A DNA stretch of 35,398 nt from a virus (lineage: Duplodnaviria; Heunggongvirae; Uroviricota; Caudoviricetes): IMG/VR virus record IMGVR_UViG_2541047928_000016. The stretch is one strand, 5' to 3'. Position numbers and translations under genes: made by a program. Shown one piece after another: positions 15,180-35,398 of this stretch (its first letter is position 1; each line of letters starts with the position of its first letter). The notes under the pieces are model-generated. The model did no database searches. It worked only from the letters and a program-made list of their open reading frames with translations, and was not told the DNA's origin.

Positions 15180-15450
15180 GATGTTACCGTAGTATGTGAG
15201 TATCCATCGAATAGACACCAAGCAAAAAAGCTCCCGAAGGAGCCTTCATTTTCACTTTTTTAAATCCAACGACAGACGGCTGGCATTTAAGTATTGTGAA
15301 ATATTATCAAATGTAATCATCATTGATTTACAAAAGATACATTTTGCCCCGAAAGGATTCATGTCAGAAACATCAAAAGATGATGTTCTATACTGGGAAC
15401 CATGACAACACGGGCATCTAAAGTGAATATGGTTTGTAATATTGTCTACC

Positions 15451-15663
15451 TCAAAGCGCCACTACATGAACAGCGGCAGGACCTTTAGGTCCGTTCTCAA
15501 TACCAAATTCAACTTCCTGATTCTCAGTTAATGTTTTGAAATCGTTGCTCTGAATTGCTGAGAAATGGACAAACACATCTTTGCTGCCATCTTTCGGCGT
15601 GATGAAACCAAAACCTTTTTCAGGGTTAAACCATTTCACTAAACCAGTCATTTTGTTAGACAT
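15451..15663 (-). CDS. cspI: Cold shock protein, CspA family (70 aa), CspI-like
   Basis: [70 protein letters not shown]; RNP1 motif KGFGFI and RNP2 VFVHF. Confidence 0.9.
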
Positions 15664-16024
15664 AATTATTACCTTTTGAAGAAATTAGCCCTTGGGCAGA
15701 ATGGTCCGAAAAAAATATCAGAGAGAAAAACCAACAAGGAAATCTCAAGAGGTACAAATAATAAAATTATAACAATGACTGCTTCAGATAAATTTGTAAC
15801 AAACCAGAACACCATTAACGCATGATTAACCACCCATAGCAAGGATTACTTTTGTAAAGAAAAACACAGCAATGAAAGAATAGCTTTATTTATTAATAAA
15901 ACGTGTCATTCTGATTAAGACCTTTTATCTTACCCTTAAGATTTCAGGAATTTTGGCTCATGGAAGAGTCCTTTTTATTTAAATTTTACATTCCGCGATG
16001 TAAATGTTCCGATTTAATATTACC

Positions 16025-18056: not shown

Positions 18057-18333
18057 TTGTGGTGCTTTTTGTGGGAGTCATCCACTTACGCACTTTGTTT
18101 TGCCATGCCAGCAGTTAGCTTCTGCTGTAAAACTATTCATGCAGCAAACCTGCACTTCACCACAATGGTTAGCATACTTTTCCTGATTAAGATTTTGCCA
18201 AATATGCTAGCCATTGTTTCATGTATTGGACCTCCTTACTTTTTATTAAAGAGATCCAATATTCACTACTCTGTCCGTATCTCTACTCAGGCATCAGCCT
18301 TCTTCGTTATCGTATACAGACGAGCGATGAATT

Positions 18334-18549
18334 TTAATCAGTAATGATGACATTTGCTGCTGCAGGACCTTTAGCACCACTCTCTATAGAGAAGGTAACC
18401 TTTTGACCTTCAAATAAGGTTCGATAATTATCATTCTGAATCGCAGAAAAATGCACAAACACATCTTTACTACCATCAACAGGAGAAATAAAGCCGAAAC
18501 CTTTATCAGCGTTAAACCATTTTACTAAACCAGTCATTTTATTTGACAT
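18334..18549 (-). CDS. cspB: Cold shock protein, CspA family (71 aa), CspB-like
   Basis: [71 protein letters not shown]; long upstream untranslated region (18550-18700) typical of cold-shock mRNAs. Confidence 0.9.
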
Positions 18550-18849
18550 TCTACATTCCTTAACTTGAGCCTTTCGGCATAAATGGTTTGCATAACAGAA
18601 ACGACTTCGTACTTAATTGGAGAGACTCAAAGAAGGAATAAGTGAATAACACCTGAAATGAGAACTGCTTTAGTAAACTACTTCGTATATCGTCTGTTCT
18701 TCAAACCGACGCAATCATTAACGCATAGTTGAACATATGAAGCAATGTTTATTTTAGACATCCAGCCATCTTCAACCCCATCAAAAAACTATAGCTTTCT
18801 TCAGGAACGTGTGTATAGTGCGCCAAGTTATCAGTATTAAGGAATTTTT

Positions 18850-24059: not shown

Positions 24060-25570
24060 CATATCCCCGGTAAAACAAGTAACAAACCACCCGAAAATGA
24101 ACACCAGAAACGCGACTTAAGAATCTACCCTATGAATGGATATGCACTCAACCGAATCGATCTTGGTTTCAATCTATTTTATCGGGATCAGGCTTCTTTT
24201 TAGGTAACTTCGGGGGCTTAACTTGCTGATGACTTTGCGTTCGGCGCGTAAGCCAGGGATGGTCAGCTTTAGATTTAACATAGTATTTTGAGCGTAAATC
24301 AATACGGGCATTATCCACTCGTTCATGGACACTCTTTTCATCATCCAGTGGTATAGGCTCCGGGCCATCAACATACTTTTCCCAGCCCAGCGCTTTCCCG
24401 TCATACAGAACGTTAATTTCACCGTCAAAGTTCTCACATACAGTAACAACTGAATGCCTAAGTCGATATCCCCGGCCCTCACTGCGTACCTGAAACGCAC
24501 TGCTTTTGTACTGGAAAGTGAGATTTTTAGACAGAACGCGCTTCGCCTGTAGGCTGAAGATATAACCCAGTTCCTCTTCAGAATGGTGCACATCAAGATG
24601 AGCATTATCAGTAGTACGAGGCGACGTAGCGAACCGGTTGTTATAGGCTTCAATAAAGGTCGGCAACCATGCATTTGCTGTTTCAATATCACTGATATTC
24701 TGAAGCCGCATTTCTTTGACCAGCCTGTCCTGTAGTGTCTGATTGGCGCGCTCTACCCGCCCTTTTGCCTGCGGGCTGTTGGCATGGATTGGCTCGATGC
24801 CCAGTGTCTTTATCGCACGAGTGAACTGGGTCAGCTCACCTTCCCGCTCTGGGTTATTTACCCTGAATATACTGTGTCTATCAGAGTAGAGAGCGAGCGG
24901 TACGCCATGATCATTAAGGTAACCCCGGAGGGTTTCCATGTAAGCCCGGGTTGTTTCAGCAGGCACAAAACGCAACGCCATCAACGCACTGGTGGCATCA
25001 TCAATGAAAACGATCAGTGTACATCTGGGGCCTCGATTTTCAAACCAGTCATGAGGTGAGCCATCAATCTGGATCAGTTCACCGTAAGATGGTCGTCGCA
25101 TGCGGCGTTGATATATACGGGCAATTTTACGACGGCGTTCACGCCATAACCCCTCTTCTATCATCCACTTTCTGAGAGTTTCAACGGATAAAGATAAACC
25201 GTGTATCTCGCGCAATTTTTCGCACGCAAACGTAGGTCCAAAATCAGCGTAACGGCCTTTGAGGAGTGAAATTACTGTTGCTCTGAATTCAGTAGAAAAG
25301 GAATTATTAGGACGCTTTCCACGTCGGTGGGAAACCAGACCAGAAGGCCCTTCATTTCTATACCGTTGCACCAGACGTTTAACCTGCCGAATAGAAATGC
25401 CAATGCGTGCCGCAGCTTGTTCCTGAGTAATATGTCGATTAATTGACTCCTGAATAATCTGAAGTCGGTGGAGTTCCTTATGACTCATCGTAACAGTCTC
25501 TTTGATCATGAAAAATCCCCCAGAGAATTGTCTGGGGACATTTTAGAATGGTTCAAAGGGGACATTACAG
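24060..25570 (-). mobile_element. Probable insertion sequence carrying a single DDE transposase; ends not resolved (no clean terminal inverted repeats or target-site duplication found)
   Basis: Single transposase gene interrupting the phage early region between flxA and the replication genes; candidate right end TGTAATGTCCCC at 25558-25569; boundaries approximate. Confidence 0.3.
24169..25509 (-). CDS. DDE-type transposase with N-terminal HTH and integrase-core (rve) domain, 446 aa; IS481/ISNCY-like
   Basis: MIKETVTMSHKELHRLQIIQESINRHITQEQAAARIGISIRQVKRLVQRYR... then LIQIDGSPHDW ... YSDRHSIF ... conserved acidic residues and Lys/Pro-rich C-tail; family-level call is from memory. Confidence 0.8.
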   Translation of the reverse strand: MIKETVTMSHKELHRLQIIQESINRHITQEQAAARIGISIRQVKRLVQRYRNEGPSGLVSHRRGKRPNNSFSTEFRATVISLLKGRYADFGPTFACEKLREIHGLSLSVETLRKWMIEEGLWRERRRKIARIYQRRMRRPSYGELIQIDGSPHDWFENRGPRCTLIVFIDDATSALMALRFVPAETTRAYMETLRGYLNDHGVPLALYSDRHSIFRVNNPEREGELTQFTRAIKTLGIEPIHANSPQAKGRVERANQTLQDRLVKEMRLQNISDIETANAWLPTFIEAYNNRFATSPRTTDNAHLDVHHSEEELGYIFSLQAKRVLSKNLTFQYKSSAFQVRSEGRGYRLRHSVVTVCENFDGEINVLYDGKALGWEKYVDGPEPIPLDDEKSVHERVDNARIDLRSKYYVKSKADHPWLTRRTQSHQQVKPPKLPKKKPDPDKID

Positions 25571-29350: not shown

Positions 29351-29408
29351 TTTCTGGTGACGTTTGGCGGTATCAGTTTTACTCCGTGACTGCTCTGCCG
29401 CCCTTTTT
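29351..29408 (+). ncRNA. dicF: DicF small RNA (ftsZ/manX-targeting antisense sRNA) with terminator hairpin and U-tract
   Basis: tttctggtgacgtttggcggtatcagttttactccgtgactgctctgccgcccttttt matches my recall of K-12 DicF; 170 nt upstream of dicB. Confidence 0.8.
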
Positions 29409-30047: not shown

Positions 30048-32519
30048 ATGAGTAAAGTCTTTATTTGCGCCGCTATTCCTGACGAACTGGCAACAAGGGA
30101 AGAAGGCGCTGTGGCTGTAGCCACAGCCATTGAAGCTGGCGACGAACGCCGTGCTCGAGCAAAATTTCACTGGCAGTTCCTGGAACATTATCCGGCTGCT
30201 CAGGACTGCGCTTATAAATTTATTGTCTGCGAGGATAAACCTGGCATACCCCGCCCTGCCCTCGATTCATGGGATGCTGAATATATGCAGGAAAACCGCT
30301 GGGATGAGGAGTCTGCTTCTTTTGTCCCGGTTGAGACTGAATCCGATCCGATGAACGTCACTTTTGACAAGCTGGCCCCTGAAGTACAGAACGCTGTCAT
30401 GGTTAAGTTCGACACATGTGAAAACATCACCGTTGATATGGTTATTAGCGCACAGGAATTGTTGCAGGAAGACATGGCAACATTCGACGGACATATCGTT
30501 GAAGCGTTGATGAAAATGCCAGAAGTTAACGCCATGTATCCGGAGCTTAAGTTGCACGCCATTGGGTGGGTTAAGCATAAATGTATTCCTGGTGCTAAAT
30601 GGCCCGAAATTCAGGCAGAGATGCGCATCTGGAAAAAACGTCGCGAAGGTGAACGCAAGGAAACCGGAAAATACACGTCTGTTGTTGATCTCGCCCGCGC
30701 CAGAGCCAATCAACAGTACACTGAAAATTCAACAGGAAAAATCAGCCCGGTCATTGCTGCCATTCATCGCGAATACAAGCAGACATGGAAAACACTGGAT
30801 GACGAACTGGCCTACGCTCTCTGGCCTGGTGATGTGGATGCCGGAAACATTGACGGCAGCATCCATCGCTGGGCAAAAAAAGAAGTTATCGACAACGACC
30901 GCGAAGACTGGAAGCGTATCTCGGCATCAATGCGCAAACAGCCTGATGCCCTTCGCTACGACCGCCAAACTATTTTTGGCCTTGTCCGTGAGCGTCCGAT
31001 CGACATTCACAAAGATCCCGTAGCACTGAACAAATATATCTGCGAATACCTGACGACAAAGGGCGTGTTTGAGAATGAAGAAACAGACCTGGGCACTGTT
31101 GATGTTCTCCAGTCATCAGAAACACAAACTGATGCAGTGGAAACTGAGGTATCTGATATCCCAAAAAATGAAACCGCGCCGGAAGCTGAACCATCTGTAG
31201 AGCGTGAGGGGCCGTTCTATTTCCTCTTCGCAGATAAGGACGGAGAAAAATACGGTCGCGCAAACAAACTTTCTGGTCTGGATAAGGCACTGGCTGCTGG
31301 CGCCACTGAAATCACAAAAGAAGAATATTTTGCCCGAAAAAATGGCACATACACGGGCTTACCGCAAAATGTAGATACCGCTGAAGATTCAGAACAACCA
31401 GAGCCGATAAAAGTTACCGCTGACGAAGTAAACAAAATTATGCAGGCAGCCAATATCAGCCAGCCTGACGCCGATAAGTTGCTTGCTGCATCACGTGGTG
31501 AATTTGTTGAAGGGATTAGTGACCCGAATGATCCGAAATGGGTTAAGGGGATCCAGACCCGCGATTCTGTGAACCAGAACCAGCATGAATCGGAACGGAA
31601 CTACCAAAAAGCGGAACAAAACAGTCCAAATGCGTTACAAAACGAGCCAGAAACGAAACAGCCTGAACCAGTGGCGCAACAGGAAGTGGAAAAAGCCTGC
31701 ACCGCCTGCGGTCAGACCGGCGGCGGCAACTGCCCTGATTGTGGCGCGGTGATGGGCGACGCAACATACCAAGAAACATTCGATGAAGAGTATCAGGTTG
31801 AAGTTCAGGAAGATGATCCGGAGGAAATGGAAGGCGCTGAACATCCACACAAGGAGAACACTGGCGGCAATCAGCATCACAATAGCGATAATGAAACTGG
31901 CGAGACGGCAGATCACCCAATTAAGGTGAACGGTCATCACGAAATCACATCCACCAGCAGGACGTGTGACCATCTAATGATCGACCTTGAAACCATGGGA
32001 AAAAATCCTGATGCCCCGATCATCTCAATAGGTGCAATATTTTTCGATCCGCAAACCGGAGATATGGGACCGGAATTTAGTAAGACTATCGATCTGGAAA
32101 CTGCTGGCGGAGTCATTGATCGGGACACCATTAAATGGTGGCTTAAGCAATCACGCGAAGCGCAATCTGCCATTATGACCGATGAAATCCCGTTAGATGA
32201 TGCACTGTTACAATTGCGGGAATTTATCGACGAAAACTCCGGTGAATTTTTTGTTCAGGTTTGGGGAAATGGAGCCAACTTCGACAACACGATTTTGCGC
32301 CGTTCATACGAACGGCAGGGGATCCCCTGCCCGTGGCGTTACTACAACGATCGCGATGTACGCACAATCGTTGAGCTGGGGAAAGCCATAGACTTCGATG
32401 CCAGAACGGCTATTCCATTCGAAGGTGAGCGCCATAATGCACTTGATGACGCCCGTTACCAGGCAAAATACGTTTCAGTTATCTGGCAAAAACTGATCCC
32501 GAGTCAGGCTGATTCTTAA
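30048..32519 (+). CDS. Large multidomain protein (823 aa) with C-terminal DnaQ-like DEDDh 3'-5' exonuclease domain, internal zinc ribbon and acidic linker; YdfE-family
   Basis: Exo motifs HLMIDLETMG (Exo I), GNGANFDNTIL (Exo II), HNALDDARY (Exo III); zinc ribbon CTACGQTGGGNCPDCG; Glu/Asp/Gln-rich low-complexity segment aa 570-640. Confidence 0.85.
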   Translation: MSKVFICAAIPDELATREEGAVAVATAIEAGDERRARAKFHWQFLEHYPAAQDCAYKFIVCEDKPGIPRPALDSWDAEYMQENRWDEESASFVPVETESDPMNVTFDKLAPEVQNAVMVKFDTCENITVDMVISAQELLQEDMATFDGHIVEALMKMPEVNAMYPELKLHAIGWVKHKCIPGAKWPEIQAEMRIWKKRREGERKETGKYTSVVDLARARANQQYTENSTGKISPVIAAIHREYKQTWKTLDDELAYALWPGDVDAGNIDGSIHRWAKKEVIDNDREDWKRISASMRKQPDALRYDRQTIFGLVRERPIDIHKDPVALNKYICEYLTTKGVFENEETDLGTVDVLQSSETQTDAVETEVSDIPKNETAPEAEPSVEREGPFYFLFADKDGEKYGRANKLSGLDKALAAGATEITKEEYFARKNGTYTGLPQNVDTAEDSEQPEPIKVTADEVNKIMQAANISQPDADKLLAASRGEFVEGISDPNDPKWVKGIQTRDSVNQNQHESERNYQKAEQNSPNALQNEPETKQPEPVAQQEVEKACTACGQTGGGNCPDCGAVMGDATYQETFDEEYQVEVQEDDPEEMEGAEHPHKENTGGNQHHNSDNETGETADHPIKVNGHHEITSTSRTCDHLMIDLETMGKNPDAPIISIGAIFFDPQTGDMGPEFSKTIDLETAGGVIDRDTIKWWLKQSREAQSAIMTDEIPLDDALLQLREFIDENSGEFFVQVWGNGANFDNTILRRSYERQGIPCPWRYYNDRDVRTIVELGKAIDFDARTAIPFEGERHNALDDARYQAKYVSVIWQKLIPSQADS

Positions 32520-32591: not shown

Positions 32592-32843
32592 ATGAGCGAA
32601 GTAATCATGATTGTCTCTCCCGGCAAATGGGTATCCGAAGAGCAGTTAATTGCGCTGAAAGGAATAAAAAAAGGTACGTTAAAAAAGGCCCGGGAAAAAT
32701 CGTTTATGGAAGGAAGGGAATATAAGCATGTCGCTCATGACGGTATGCCATGGGATAACAGTCCATGCTTTTACAACCTGGAAGAAATTGATCGCTGGAT
32801 TGAGCGCCAGGCATCAGCGAGACCAAGACGTCATCTTACTTGA
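32592..32843 (+). CDS. Excisionase-like small DNA-binding protein (83 aa)
   Basis: Small basic ORF immediately upstream of the integrase and ending 20 nt before it; the excisionase call rests on position and size only. Confidence 0.55.
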   Translation: MSEVIMIVSPGKWVSEEQLIALKGIKKGTLKKAREKSFMEGREYKHVAHDGMPWDNSPCFYNLEEIDRWIERQASARPRRHLT

Positions 32844-32862: not shown

Positions 32863-34158
32863 ATGAGAGAAGTTGAAATGAAATATCCGACAGGCGTGGA
32901 AAACCATGGAGGGAAATTACGTATCTGGTTTGTTTATAAAGGCGTAAGAGTCAGGGAAAATCTGGGGGTTCCTGACACAGCAAAAAACAGGCGCGTTGCA
33001 GGTGAACTACGCTCCTCTGTTTGTTACGCAATAAAAACTGGTGTTTTCGACTATGCAAAACAGTTTCCCTCCTCACGCAATCTGGAAAAATTTGGTGAGG
33101 CCCGACAAGATTTAACCATAAAAGAACTGGCTGAAAAATTTCTGGCACTGAAAGAAACTGAAGTCGCCAAAACATCACTCAACACATACCGTGCCGTCAT
33201 CAAAAATATCCTGAGCATAATCGGTGAAAAAAATCTTGCCTCATCGATTAATAAAGAAAAATTACTGGAGGTTCGTAAAGAGCTACTGACTGGATACCAG
33301 ATCCCCAAAAGTAACTATATTGTTACACAACCAGGGAGATCGGCTGTAACTGTAAATAATTACATGACAAATCTTAACGCCGTGTTCCAGTTTGGTGTTG
33401 ATAACGGTTACCTGGCAGATAATCCGTTTAAGGGGATCTCGCCATTAAAGGAATCAAGAACCATTCCGGATCCTCTTGCGCGGGAGGAATTTATCCGTCT
33501 TATCGATGCATGCAGAAATCAGCAAGCAAAAAATTTATGGTGTGTTTCTGTTTATACTGGCGTTCGCCCTGGTGAGCTGTGTGCACTTGGATGGGAGGAC
33601 ATAGATCTGAAAAATGGAACAATGATGATCAGGAGAAATTTAGCAAAAGACCGTTTCACGGTACCAAAAACACAGGCGGGAACCAATCGGGTCATTCATC
33701 TTATTAAGCCAGCAATCGACGCTCTCCGGAGTCAGATGACATTAACGAGACTGAGCAAAGAGCATATCATTGATGTTCACCTCAGAGAGTATGGCAGAAC
33801 AGAAAAACAAAAATGCACCTTTGTTTTTCAACCTGAAGTGTCAGCGAGAGTAAAAAATTATGGTGACCATTTTACCGTTGACTCAATAAGGCAGATGTGG
33901 GACGCAGCGATAAAACGTGCCGGACTCCGCCATCGAAAATCATATCAGTCGAGACATACTTATGCCTGCTGGTCGCTGACAGCTGGTGCTAACCCGGCAT
34001 TTATAGCAAACCAGATGGGCCATGCAGATGCGCAAATGGTATTTCAGGTATACGGAAAATGGATGTCTGAAAACAATAATGCACAGGTAGCTTTGTTAAA
34101 TACACAGTTAAGCGAGTTTGCCCCAACCATGCCCCATAACGAAGCAATGAAAAATTAA
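32863..34158 (+). CDS. Tyrosine site-specific integrase (lambda Int family), about 426-431 aa
   Basis: C-terminal catalytic region with conserved R (VYTGVRPGE), H-x-x-R (HRKSYQSRHTYA) and GH...VYGKW tyrosine; alternative ATG at 32878. Confidence 0.9.
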   Translation: MREVEMKYPTGVENHGGKLRIWFVYKGVRVRENLGVPDTAKNRRVAGELRSSVCYAIKTGVFDYAKQFPSSRNLEKFGEARQDLTIKELAEKFLALKETEVAKTSLNTYRAVIKNILSIIGEKNLASSINKEKLLEVRKELLTGYQIPKSNYIVTQPGRSAVTVNNYMTNLNAVFQFGVDNGYLADNPFKGISPLKESRTIPDPLAREEFIRLIDACRNQQAKNLWCVSVYTGVRPGELCALGWEDIDLKNGTMMIRRNLAKDRFTVPKTQAGTNRVIHLIKPAIDALRSQMTLTRLSKEHIIDVHLREYGRTEKQKCTFVFQPEVSARVKNYGDHFTVDSIRQMWDAAIKRAGLRHRKSYQSRHTYACWSLTAGANPAFIANQMGHADAQMVFQVYGKWMSENNNAQVALLNTQLSEFAPTMPHNEAMKN

Positions 34159-34186
34159 TTTAATATTTATCAAATAGTTAACACGC

Positions 34187-35398
34187 ATGACTCTTGAAAT
34201 CCATAACATCCAGAGCATTCTTGGGATCCAGTCGATCGACACCGGGATCCTCGGTGCGGTGATCGCCGGTATTATCGTCTGGATGCTGCATGAGCGATTC
34301 CATAATATCCGCCTGCCGGATGCGCTGGCATTCTTCGGCGGTACGCGCTTCGTACCAATCATCTCCTCGCTAGTGATGGGTCTTGTCGGCCTGGTGATTC
34401 CATTAGTCTGGCCGATTTTCGCCATGGGTATTAGCGGCTTAGGCCATATGATCAACAGCGCGGGAGATTTCGGACCGATGCTGTTTGGTACCGGTGAACG
34501 TCTGCTGTTGCCGTTTGGTCTGCATCACATTCTGGTGGCATTAATTCGCTTTACCGACGCAGGCGGCACGCAGGAAGTCTGCGGTCAAACCGTCAGCGGT
34601 GCACTGACCATCTTCCAGGCGCAATTGAGTTGCCCAACCACTCACGGTTTTTCTGAAAGCGCCACGCGTTTCCTTTCGCAAGGTAAAATGCCTGCGTTTC
34701 TCGGCGGTCTGCCAGGTGCAGCGTTAGCTATGTATCACTGTGCGCGCCCGGAAAATCGCCATAAAATTAAAGGTCTGCTGATTTCTGGCCTGATCGCCTG
34801 TGTCGTTGGCGGCACGACCGAACCGCTGGAATTCCTGTTCCTGTTCGTAGCGCCAGTTCTGTATGTCATCCACGCGCTGTTAACCGGCCTCGGCTTCACT
34901 GTCATGTCTGTGCTCGGCGTCACCATCGGTAATACCGACGGCAATATCATCGACTTTGTGGTGTTCGGTATTTTGCATGGTCTGTCAACCAAGTGGTACA
35001 TGGTGCCAGTAGTGGCGGCAATCTGGTTTGTCGTTTACTACATCATCTTCCGTTTCGCTATCACCCGCTTCAATCTCAAAACCCCGGGGCGCGATAGTGA
35101 AGTTGCCAGTTCAATCGAAAAAGCCGTTGCCGGTGCGCCGGGTAAATCAGGTTACAACGTTCCGGCAATCCTCGAAGCCTTAGGCGGTGCCGACAATATT
35201 GTCAGCCTCGATAACTGCATTACGCGTCTGCGTTTGTCTGTAAAAGATATGTCGCTTGTTAATGTGCAGGCACTGAAGGACAATCGGGCAATTGGCGTAG
35301 TACAACTTAATCAACATAACCTGCAGGTTGTTATCGGGCCACAAGTTCAGTCAGTAAAAGATGAAATGGCCGGTCTGATGCATACTGTCCAGGCATAA
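34187..35398 (+). CDS. PTS glucose-family EIICB component, 3' portion (403 aa); appears 5'-truncated at the prophage junction (possibly MalX/PtsG-like)
   Basis: Multiple TM helices then C-terminal EIIB domain with phosphorylation-site motif NCITRLRLSV; shorter than typical EIICB by roughly 70-120 N-terminal residues; integrase gene lies 29 nt upstream. Confidence 0.75.
   Translation: MTLEIHNIQSILGIQSIDTGILGAVIAGIIVWMLHERFHNIRLPDALAFFGGTRFVPIISSLVMGLVGLVIPLVWPIFAMGISGLGHMINSAGDFGPMLFGTGERLLLPFGLHHILVALIRFTDAGGTQEVCGQTVSGALTIFQAQLSCPTTHGFSESATRFLSQGKMPAFLGGLPGAALAMYHCARPENRHKIKGLLISGLIACVVGGTTEPLEFLFLFVAPVLYVIHALLTGLGFTVMSVLGVTIGNTDGNIIDFVVFGILHGLSTKWYMVPVVAAIWFVVYYIIFRFAITRFNLKTPGRDSEVASSIEKAVAGAPGKSGYNVPAILEALGGADNIVSLDNCITRLRLSVKDMSLVNVQALKDNRAIGVVQLNQHNLQVVIGPQVQSVKDEMAGLMHTVQA

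Follow-up and report, generated by a model that had tools for sequence, protein, structure and literature searches.

The window analysed here is a 35,398-nt stretch of DNA from E. coli UMEA 3203-1 (scaffold KE702020.1 of GCA_000460775.1, positions 320629-356026), in which phage genes run up to an integrase gene and are followed by part of a sugar-transporter gene. The prophage genes in the window include those for tail, head, terminase, lysis, cold-shock, and immunity/replication functions, then dicF-dicB, exo, xis, and int, with the gene for an 823-aa exonuclease standing first in the exo-xis-int module. The remaining ~13.8 kb of the prophage, with L, K, I, J, lom, the tail fibres, and an invertase, lies upstream of the window. 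The features on which the analysis draws are as follows, with the evidence for each in brackets.

1-34206: right-hand 34.2 kb of a 48,023-bp lambda-like prophage (identity to phage PhiR42_1; Pfam on identical loci)
30048-32519, + strand: exonuclease, 823 aa, YdfE-like (Pfam YdfE_N, YdfE_C, and Rv2179c-like; annotated as exonuclease in matching records)
32592-32843, + strand: excisionase, 83 aa (Pfam PF06806; so annotated in phage and genome records)
32878-34158, + strand: tyrosine integrase of the Qin (IntQ)/mEp460 type, 426 aa (Pfam Arm-DNA-bind_2, PF12167, and Phage_integrase, PF00589)
34159-34206, + strand: last part of the phage att arm on the integrase side (in lambda terms, the P' arm), which supplies the first six codons of the chimeric ORF, beginning with the ATG at 34187
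34187-35398, + strand: chimeric 403-aa ORF, MTLEIH (six phage-encoded residues) followed by MalX 134-530 (most of EIIC, and EIIB)
34196-34206, + strand: phage copy of the 11-bp core GAAATCCATAA, common to attP and the primary attB in ydfJ
34203-34206, + strand: ATAA, malX codons 133/134 (alignments of both junctions, attP, and attB)
34207-35398, + strand: host DNA, from the third base of malX codon 134 to the stop codon (99.8% identity to malX of strain E02)

An alternative ATG at 32863 would lengthen the integrase to 431 aa. Two ORFs that span the junction on the minus strand (34108-34455 and 34178-34303) were rejected as antisense to malX/int and unsupported, and a tRNA-type att site was rejected because the window contains no tRNA or tmRNA.

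The integrase ORF stops at 34158, and after 28 nt the next ORF opens on the same strand and reaches the final base of the window. The initial annotation had described an integrase abutting a 5'-truncated PTS EIICB gene, and this description was borne out: the ORF has Pfam PTS_EIIC and PTS_EIIB domains with the CITRLR motif, and the alignment to E. coli malX that it had proposed identifies 34187-35398 as the 3' part of that gene, with 398 of 401 residues identical to residues 130-530 of intact MalX. MalX is the PTS maltose/glucose EIICB, and the malX-malY operon is under MalI repression. At the DNA level, malX matched the window from 34195 or 34203 to 35398 at 97.7-99.8% identity in 5,410 of the 5,426 complete E. 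coli genomes, which is far beyond chance. The intact malX of strain E02 matched at 99.8%, and the gene is annotated in matching genomes as "PTS maltose transporter subunit IICB". Orthology is further supported by malY downstream, and by malI and the 5' fragment of the gene at the other prophage end; directly past the 3' end of the window come malY, add, and ydgJ.

Intact malX has 1,593 nt (530 aa), and its start lies 133 codons further 5' in 5,406 of 5,416 genomes, which contradicts the idea that the family could begin at the ATG at 34187; an intact copy with the same 5' end and no prophage was not found either. The missing part had been put at 70-120 residues, yet it comprises 133, and alignments with the solved structures of the homologues PtsG and MalT begin at about MalX residue 9-15. 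The EIIC domain is therefore incomplete, residues 1-133 being absent, and the EIIB domain is present. Homology to malX begins abruptly at 34203, with phage attP sequence 5' of that position. Thus, the ORF resembles E. coli MalX in its 99% identity to residues 134-530, its EIIC and EIIB domains, and its neighbour malY, but lacks residues 1-133, the native promoter, and the native start, which marks it as a fragment of a pseudogene and not as a family member whose N-terminus is short. In sister genomes PGAP annotates this fragment as a malX pseudogene, and the exact 403-aa product stands in GenBank as EQY00428.1 (UMEA 3203-1).

On the phage side, positions 1-25000 of the window matched phage PhiR42_1 (48.7 kb) at 98.3% identity and 100% coverage, and the xis-int-att DNA was 99.2-99.8% identical to that of phages HannyBb, PhiR42_1, Tritos, and mEp460. 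Given the match to PhiR42_1 over 25 kb and the intact int and xis genes, the prophage looks complete. At 48 kb it is apparently an intact lambdoid element, almost a twin of PhiR42_1, a viable phage, and related to mEp460 and HannyBb. The genomes of these four phages differ from the window in being unintegrated, free-phage sequences, and their attP is what results when the phage arm of the window is put together with that of the other junction. The records consulted for these phages give no integration site, and none was found for mEp460 in the literature searched. The exact sequence of the prophage gpM tail protein was present in 41,649 blocks of the collection.

It had also been predicted that the missing 5' part of the gene should sit at the other prophage end. 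It was indeed located there, on the same scaffold KE702020.1, 48,023 bp upstream when measured from ATAA copy to ATAA copy. In the sister genome of strain 2020CK-00188, a Qin-like prophage likewise has the malX 5' fragment at its far end, with the junction ...GCCAATAA/TTCACAGGTG... (here and below, a slash marks the point of exchange). Translation across this far junction gives a 153-aa fusion of MalX 1-134 and SQVFFPILWFPWRFLGFFR. The far-junction sequence of UMEA 3203-1 is the same, and the identical 153-aa fusion is recorded there as EQY01093.1 (306411-306872 of the same scaffold). Upstream of this ORF are malI, hdhA, uidR, and uidABC; downstream are ynfT-like and ydfK-like genes, the invertase, the tail fibres, lom, and J. 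The fusion was matched by an exact-sequence search; a protein homology search with its predicted sequence gave nothing but partial or frameshifted pieces of MalX.

With both ends available, the sites before integration could be rebuilt. The attP of the free phages HannyBb, mEp460, and PhiR42_1 reads ...CATGACTCTTGAAATCCATAA/TTCACAGGTGTTTTTTCCC..., and the uninterrupted malX site of the prophage-free allele reads ...GCGGTTCTGAAAGCCAATAA/CATCCAGAGCATTC.... The window junction is the left half of the phage attP joined to the right half of malX, and the other junction is the left half of malX joined to the right half of the phage attP. The two malX junction sequences are GAAAGCCAATAATTCACAGGTG and GAAATCCATAACATCCAGAGC, the attP stretch is ...TCCATAATTCACAGG..., and the restored malX stretch is ...GCCAATAACATCC.... 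The two junctions of the same scaffold, GCCAATAA/TTCACAGG and TCCATAA/CATCCAGAG, recombine exactly into E02 malX and attP with no base lost or gained. Because both parents are rebuilt exactly, the pair carries the signature of conservative site-specific recombination. The initial proposal that the prophage had integrated within the transporter gene is thus supported, as the junctions restore both the free-phage attP and the malX of prophage-free strains, the comparison with an uninterrupted allele that had been suggested.

The phage arm at 34159-34206 is identical to the attP of HannyBb, mEp460, and PhiR42_1, and to the integrase-side junction of the K-12 prophage Qin, up to ...GAAATCCATAA. 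The crossover lies 48 nt from the end of the integrase ORF, and integrase and excisionase genes both stand beside it, as expected of an att junction. An att core at 34160-34200 had been suggested; it lies slightly further on, at 34196-34206, and the exact overlap, ATAA at 34203-34206, falls outside the suggested interval. This ATAA is the only stretch identical in register across attP, the malX attB, and both junctions, so strand exchange must have been resolved there. The malX site matches a putative 7-bp overlap, TCCATAA, at five of seven positions in register, and with a 1-nt gap it matches 12 of the 13 positions of TGAAATCCATAA. The identical overlap used by tyrosine integrases is usually 6-8 bp; only 4 bp are identical in register here, and the exchange would therefore have had to tolerate heterology. 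So poor an overlap fits a secondary site and not a primary one. In lambda terms, the junction nearest the integrase is named attL (BOP'). The part of the window from 34159 to 35398 is almost certainly the attL of a prophage inserted in malX, to judge from the sequences on both sides of the exchange.

Qin itself is located in the 5' end of ydfJ (PMC6379469). The K-12 Qin junctions read ...CTGGAAATCCATAA/TTCACAGG and ...CTTGAAATCCATAA/ATTCAAGC; in the K-12 strain C600, the integrase-side junction, ...CTTGAAATCCATAA/ATTCAAGCGCAG..., adjoins rspB, and the far junction, ...ATAACTGGAAATCCATAA/TTCACAGG..., adjoins the 3' part of ydfJ. Intact ydfJ reads ...CTGGAAGTCCATAAATTCAAGC, and the intact allele of a B2 strain reads ...AACTGGAAGTCCATAAATTCAAGC.... 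The phage attP and the ydfJ site have in common the 11 bp of GAAATCCATAA, or GAAGTCCATAA, reduced to TCCATAA in the B2 allele. K-12 Qin, along with hundreds of further genomes, matched the 3' part of int and the phage arm at ~99.4%. The window integrase is identical at 425 of 426 residues to the integrase of a ydfJ-resident prophage, the sole difference being A201 in the window and S201 in the ydfJ prophage. The malX prophage of strain OkiPb01713 also has S201, so residue 201 does not follow location.

The likeness to K-12 Qin extends from the integrase type and the integrase-side arm to the dicF-dicB-ydfD-exonuclease-xis-int module and to the tail-side arm genes ynfT, ydfK, and pin, and the prophage in malX of 2020CK-00188 is itself a Qin-like defective one. 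The two differ in size and state, the window prophage being full-length at 48 kb with head and tail genes, whereas K-12 Qin is a 20-kb remnant with int truncated by IS2. They also differ in host site. The integrase and arm are of the IntQ type, but instead of an insertion in ydfJ next to rspB we observed a junction with malX, followed by malY-add-ydgJ. On the sequence of its enzyme and arm, the window prophage is assigned to the Qin/mEp460 type, at a non-canonical site.

We next consider how often each site is occupied. The int-malX junction was present in two of the 5,426 complete E. coli genomes. The ydfJ attB was intact in 2,009 of them. In most of the others ydfJ was interrupted exactly at the core; the share of all genomes so split, estimated from 35 of 60 evenly spaced rows, is ~58%. 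The malX site is thus the poorer match, with 4 bp in register compared to 11 bp at ydfJ, and also the more rarely occupied of the two. That malX would be the usual target of the phage, as the initial annotation had implicitly assumed, is not supported by these counts, which fit a rare, degenerate site beside a primary one in ydfJ. Even so rare, the malX junction is recurrent and not a one-off. It was observed in identical form in host flanks of four or more haplotypes, 0.7-2.4% apart (8-kb flanks, nine loci), and the exact 153-aa fusion protein was found on 77 contigs and in 115 blocks of the collection, gut metagenome scaffolds among them. OkiPb01713 has the same malX junction with an integrase variant that is only 96% identical and a visibly different arm; the tail-side end of its prophage has been rearranged by IS66/IS3 and an inversion, and only its integrase-side junction is informative. 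No reports of malX as a prophage site were found in the literature searched, where malX appeared as a pathogenicity-island marker or in lists of virulence genes.

The state of ydfJ was then compared across the backgrounds of the malX lysogens. The 8-kb flank of UMEA 3203-1 (haplotype A) is 100% identical to that of ST95-complex genomes such as S88, ATCC 11775, and MS7163, and the ydfJ state of UMEA 3203-1 was read from genomes with this identical flank, which lies ~39 kb away. In S88, ydfJ has a 1,013-bp deletion that removes the left half of attB; its right end, GCGGTT/AGTCCATAAATTC, is 2 bp from the core. The junction of this deletion, GCGGTTAGTCCATAAATTC, was present in 124 of the 5,426 genomes, and the deletion was found in 25 of 25 flank-identical genomes among the matches listed. 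For haplotype B, also read by flank proxy, the proxy genome FDAARGOS_144 has an unrelated MFS gene in place of ydfJ and rspB and no core sequence. In 2020CK-00188 (haplotype C), a TRAP-transporter operon lies between ydfI and rspB and ydfJ is absent, and in OkiPb01713 ydfJ is truncated by IS3. The flank of haplotype D is common to very many genomes, at least one of these proxies having an occupied ydfJ. As genomes without a usable ydfJ left half make up only ~5% of the collection, the loss of ydfJ across the assessable malX-lysogen backgrounds, which is in part proxy evidence, is unlikely to be due to chance. The S88-type remnant still has TCCATAA and the right half-site, so there the primary site is damaged and not absent. 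The malX prophage was found in none of the 124 complete genomes carrying the ydfJ deletion, which means that ydfJ loss is at most permissive.

These observations bear on whether malX might instead be a dedicated primary attachment site, with the phage specifically targeting the transporter gene. Such a preference would account for a precise junction that recurs, to the nucleotide, with two integrase variants and in four or more host haplotypes, and for a fusion protein found on 77 contigs. It would be difficult to reconcile with an integrase that shares 425 of its 426 residues with one resident in ydfJ, and with an attP that has an 11-bp core in common with ydfJ and only ATAA in register with malX. 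Nor does any integrase substitution follow the malX location, A201 and S201 both occurring there, and it is ydfJ that is occupied at the core in most genomes, against two malX insertions in 5,426. We therefore consider a dedicated malX phage improbable.

Other origins for the junction were judged less probable still. A secondary rearrangement, either homologous recombination between lambdoid prophages or an IS-mediated inversion or translocation of one end of a ydfJ-resident prophage, has a concrete model in OkiPb01713, where IS66/IS3 cuts short the tail-side end of the malX prophage, which continues into an inverted segment ending in the IS3-truncated ydfJ. UMEA 3203-1 and 2020CK-00188, however, have both junctions, reciprocal and with no malX base lost, and the gene order is normal on both sides (malI-malX-malY-add). 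The breaks fall exactly at the attP crossover that is used in ydfJ and is present in free phages, whereas homologous or IS events would not place an attP breakpoint at both ends, and neither IS elements nor prophage homology were seen at the UMEA 3203-1 breakpoints. A rearrangement is accordingly very unlikely. It is hardly credible that the 403-aa ORF is a genuine shorter EIICB or a paralogue that lies beside the integrase by coincidence, or that assembly produced a chimeric junction. In favour of a real gene, the frame is open from its ATG and GenBank has it as a protein (EQY00428.1), but its malX homology ends abruptly at 34203 with phage attP upstream, and at the N-terminus both the solved homologues and the malX genes of 5,406 E. 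coli genomes extend ~130 residues further. As for a chimera, the same junction recurs in independent complete genomes, draft genomes, and metagenomes.

The best explanation of the locus as a whole is very probably that a Qin-type integrase inserted a 48-kb lambdoid prophage in malX at codons 133/134, splitting the transporter gene at what is probably a secondary site. The tyrosine integrase acted by conservative site-specific recombination; the sequences show that attP (...CTCTTGAAATCCATAA/TTCACAGGTG...) and malX (...GTTCTGAAAGCCAATAA/CATCCAGAGC...) recombined at ATAA. The same enzyme would normally direct integration into ydfJ, with its 11-bp core, and would land in the imperfect malX look-alike, GAAAGCCAATAA compared with GAAATCC-ATAA, as a fallback in hosts without the ydfJ site, for example the ST95-type lineage to which the flanks of UMEA 3203-1 belong. 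On this comparison of genomes, malX is probably a secondary attachment site, used where the host has had its ydfJ site deleted or replaced. A stricter claim would make malX codon 133/134 a back-up attB that integrases of the Qin/mEp460 type use reproducibly, and only in lineages from which the ydfJ site has already gone; here we see the balance as tilting slightly in favour. If it is true, erosion of a primary att site redirects a common phage family into the malX-malY operon of extra-intestinal pathogenic lineages, and loss of the ydfJ attB, as in ST95, is predicted to redirect these phages. The 1-kb ydfJ deletion of the ST95 complex, which ends 2 bp from the att core, is possibly the scar of a faulty prophage excision.

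There are precedents for such behaviour. When the primary attB is missing or occupied, lambda and Stx phages insert at low frequency at partly matching cores, often disrupting genes. Secondary sites of lambda were reportedly described by Shimada, Weisberg and Gottesman in 1972, and Serra-Moreno et al. are said to have found in 2007 that the choice of site by Stx phages depends on which loci are available. The malX case would be analogous in its degenerate core, its rarity, and its hosts without the primary site, and it differs in being known from comparative genomics alone. The event is otherwise a standard prophage-host junction made by a known type of integrase, and what is new is limited to the malX site. 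It offers a natural example of site choice in a very common E. coli prophage family, with ydfJ as the primary site and malX as the fallback.

The insertion left malX in two pieces. The 5' piece, adjoining malI, comprises codons 1-133 with a 19-codon phage tail, and the 3' piece, adjoining malY, comprises codons 134-530 behind a fortuitous in-frame phage ATG. A complete EIIC domain is encoded by neither. Neither piece is expected to form a working EIICB transporter, since the 3' piece is without the N-terminal quarter of the EIIC domain; the inactivation proposed in the initial annotation is thus a sound expectation. No Shine-Dalgarno-like sequence was found before the ATG at 34187, and on the + strand there was neither a promoter-like site just upstream of this ATG nor a terminator-like site between int and the malX 3' piece. 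With no promoter-like site, transcription of the malX 3' piece and malY would have to come by read-through from the int operon, and malY, separated from the MalI-controlled malX promoter, would be reachable only in this way. The physiological effect of the split is probably small. MalX is dispensable, and MalY acts as a repressor of the maltose regulon mainly when it is over-produced. The gain is chiefly for annotation: the two GenBank proteins recorded as "EIICB", EQY00428.1 (403 aa) and EQY01093.1 (153 aa), can be recognised as the two halves of one malX gene split by a prophage, whose borders are now defined with single-nucleotide precision.

The ydfI-rspA interval of E. coli, which holds the primary Qin attB in ydfJ, was found to be polymorphic, and we distinguished three versions of it (L numbers here and below denote loci with their own coordinates):

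L024 12599-15043, version 1, ydfJ-rspB
L022 23653-26461 (2020CK-00188, another malX lysogen), version 2, a TRAP-transporter operon plus rspB
L035 16220-17554 (FDAARGOS_144), version 3, a single unrelated MFS transporter, without ydfJ and without rspB

The Qin attB is absent from the TRAP-transporter and MFS versions. ST95-complex genomes carry a 1,013-bp deletion internal to ydfJ, which was observed in 124 of 5,426 complete genomes:

L034 (E. coli S88, NC_011742.1) 15420-15832, ydfJ deletion, compared with L024 12862-13878

The right end of this deletion, GCGGTT|AGTCCATAAATTC, is 2 bp away from TCCATAA, the Qin-type att core. Of the primary attB, only the core and the right half-site remain. 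The deletion could be the scar of faulty excision or of an Int-mediated deletion.

In the malX lysogen OkiPb01713, the tail-side end of the prophage is interrupted at a tail-assembly gene by IS66/IS3 (L023 26362-29950; L033 20711-23169). The cut end adjoins an inverted chromosomal segment, the far end of which is an IS3-truncated ydfJ. This arrangement suggests that IS3 mediated an inversion in which prophage DNA took part at malX as well as at ydfJ.

Directly past the crossover, attP contains an inverted repeat, CACAGG-N14-CCTGTGG, followed by TTT, which in lysogens falls in the tail-side att arm, outside the window:

L025 10402-10440, also L006 4208-4240, inverted repeat

The repeat sits just 3' of int in the free phage and apart from int in the prophage. 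It recalls lambda sib/tI retroregulation, though the stem here is short. Related integrases are borne by Shiga-toxin phages, as in ~ 15 Stx2a-converting phage records (within LC727844-LC727872) the last stretch is an integrase 3' end plus arm, 90-93% identical to those of the window.

Other elements were located within the window itself:

15424-15808, minus strand, cspA-type thermoregulator 5' UTR (Rfam RF01766)
18318-18710, minus strand, cspA-type thermoregulator 5' UTR (RF01766; the two copies score 114 and 159 bits)
24169-25509, minus strand, 446-aa ORF with HTH_23/HTH_28/rve_3 transposase-like domains
29352-29403, plus strand, DicF antisense sRNA (Rfam RF00039, 76.7 bits)

DicF lies 5' of dicB-ydfD-exonuclease, the same arrangement as in K-12 Qin, so the window's phage, which is apparently intact and probably active, carries the dicBF cell-division-inhibition module. 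The two UTRs indicate a pair of cold-shock protein genes in the phage late region, resembling cspB/cspI/cspF of Qin. The transposase-like ORF adjoins the replication/immunity genes, and at the equivalent position the annotation of 2020CK-00188 gives a truncated ISNCY-family transposase. This ORF travels with the phage, since the match to the free phage PhiR42_1 reaches window position 25000 and thus spans most of it.
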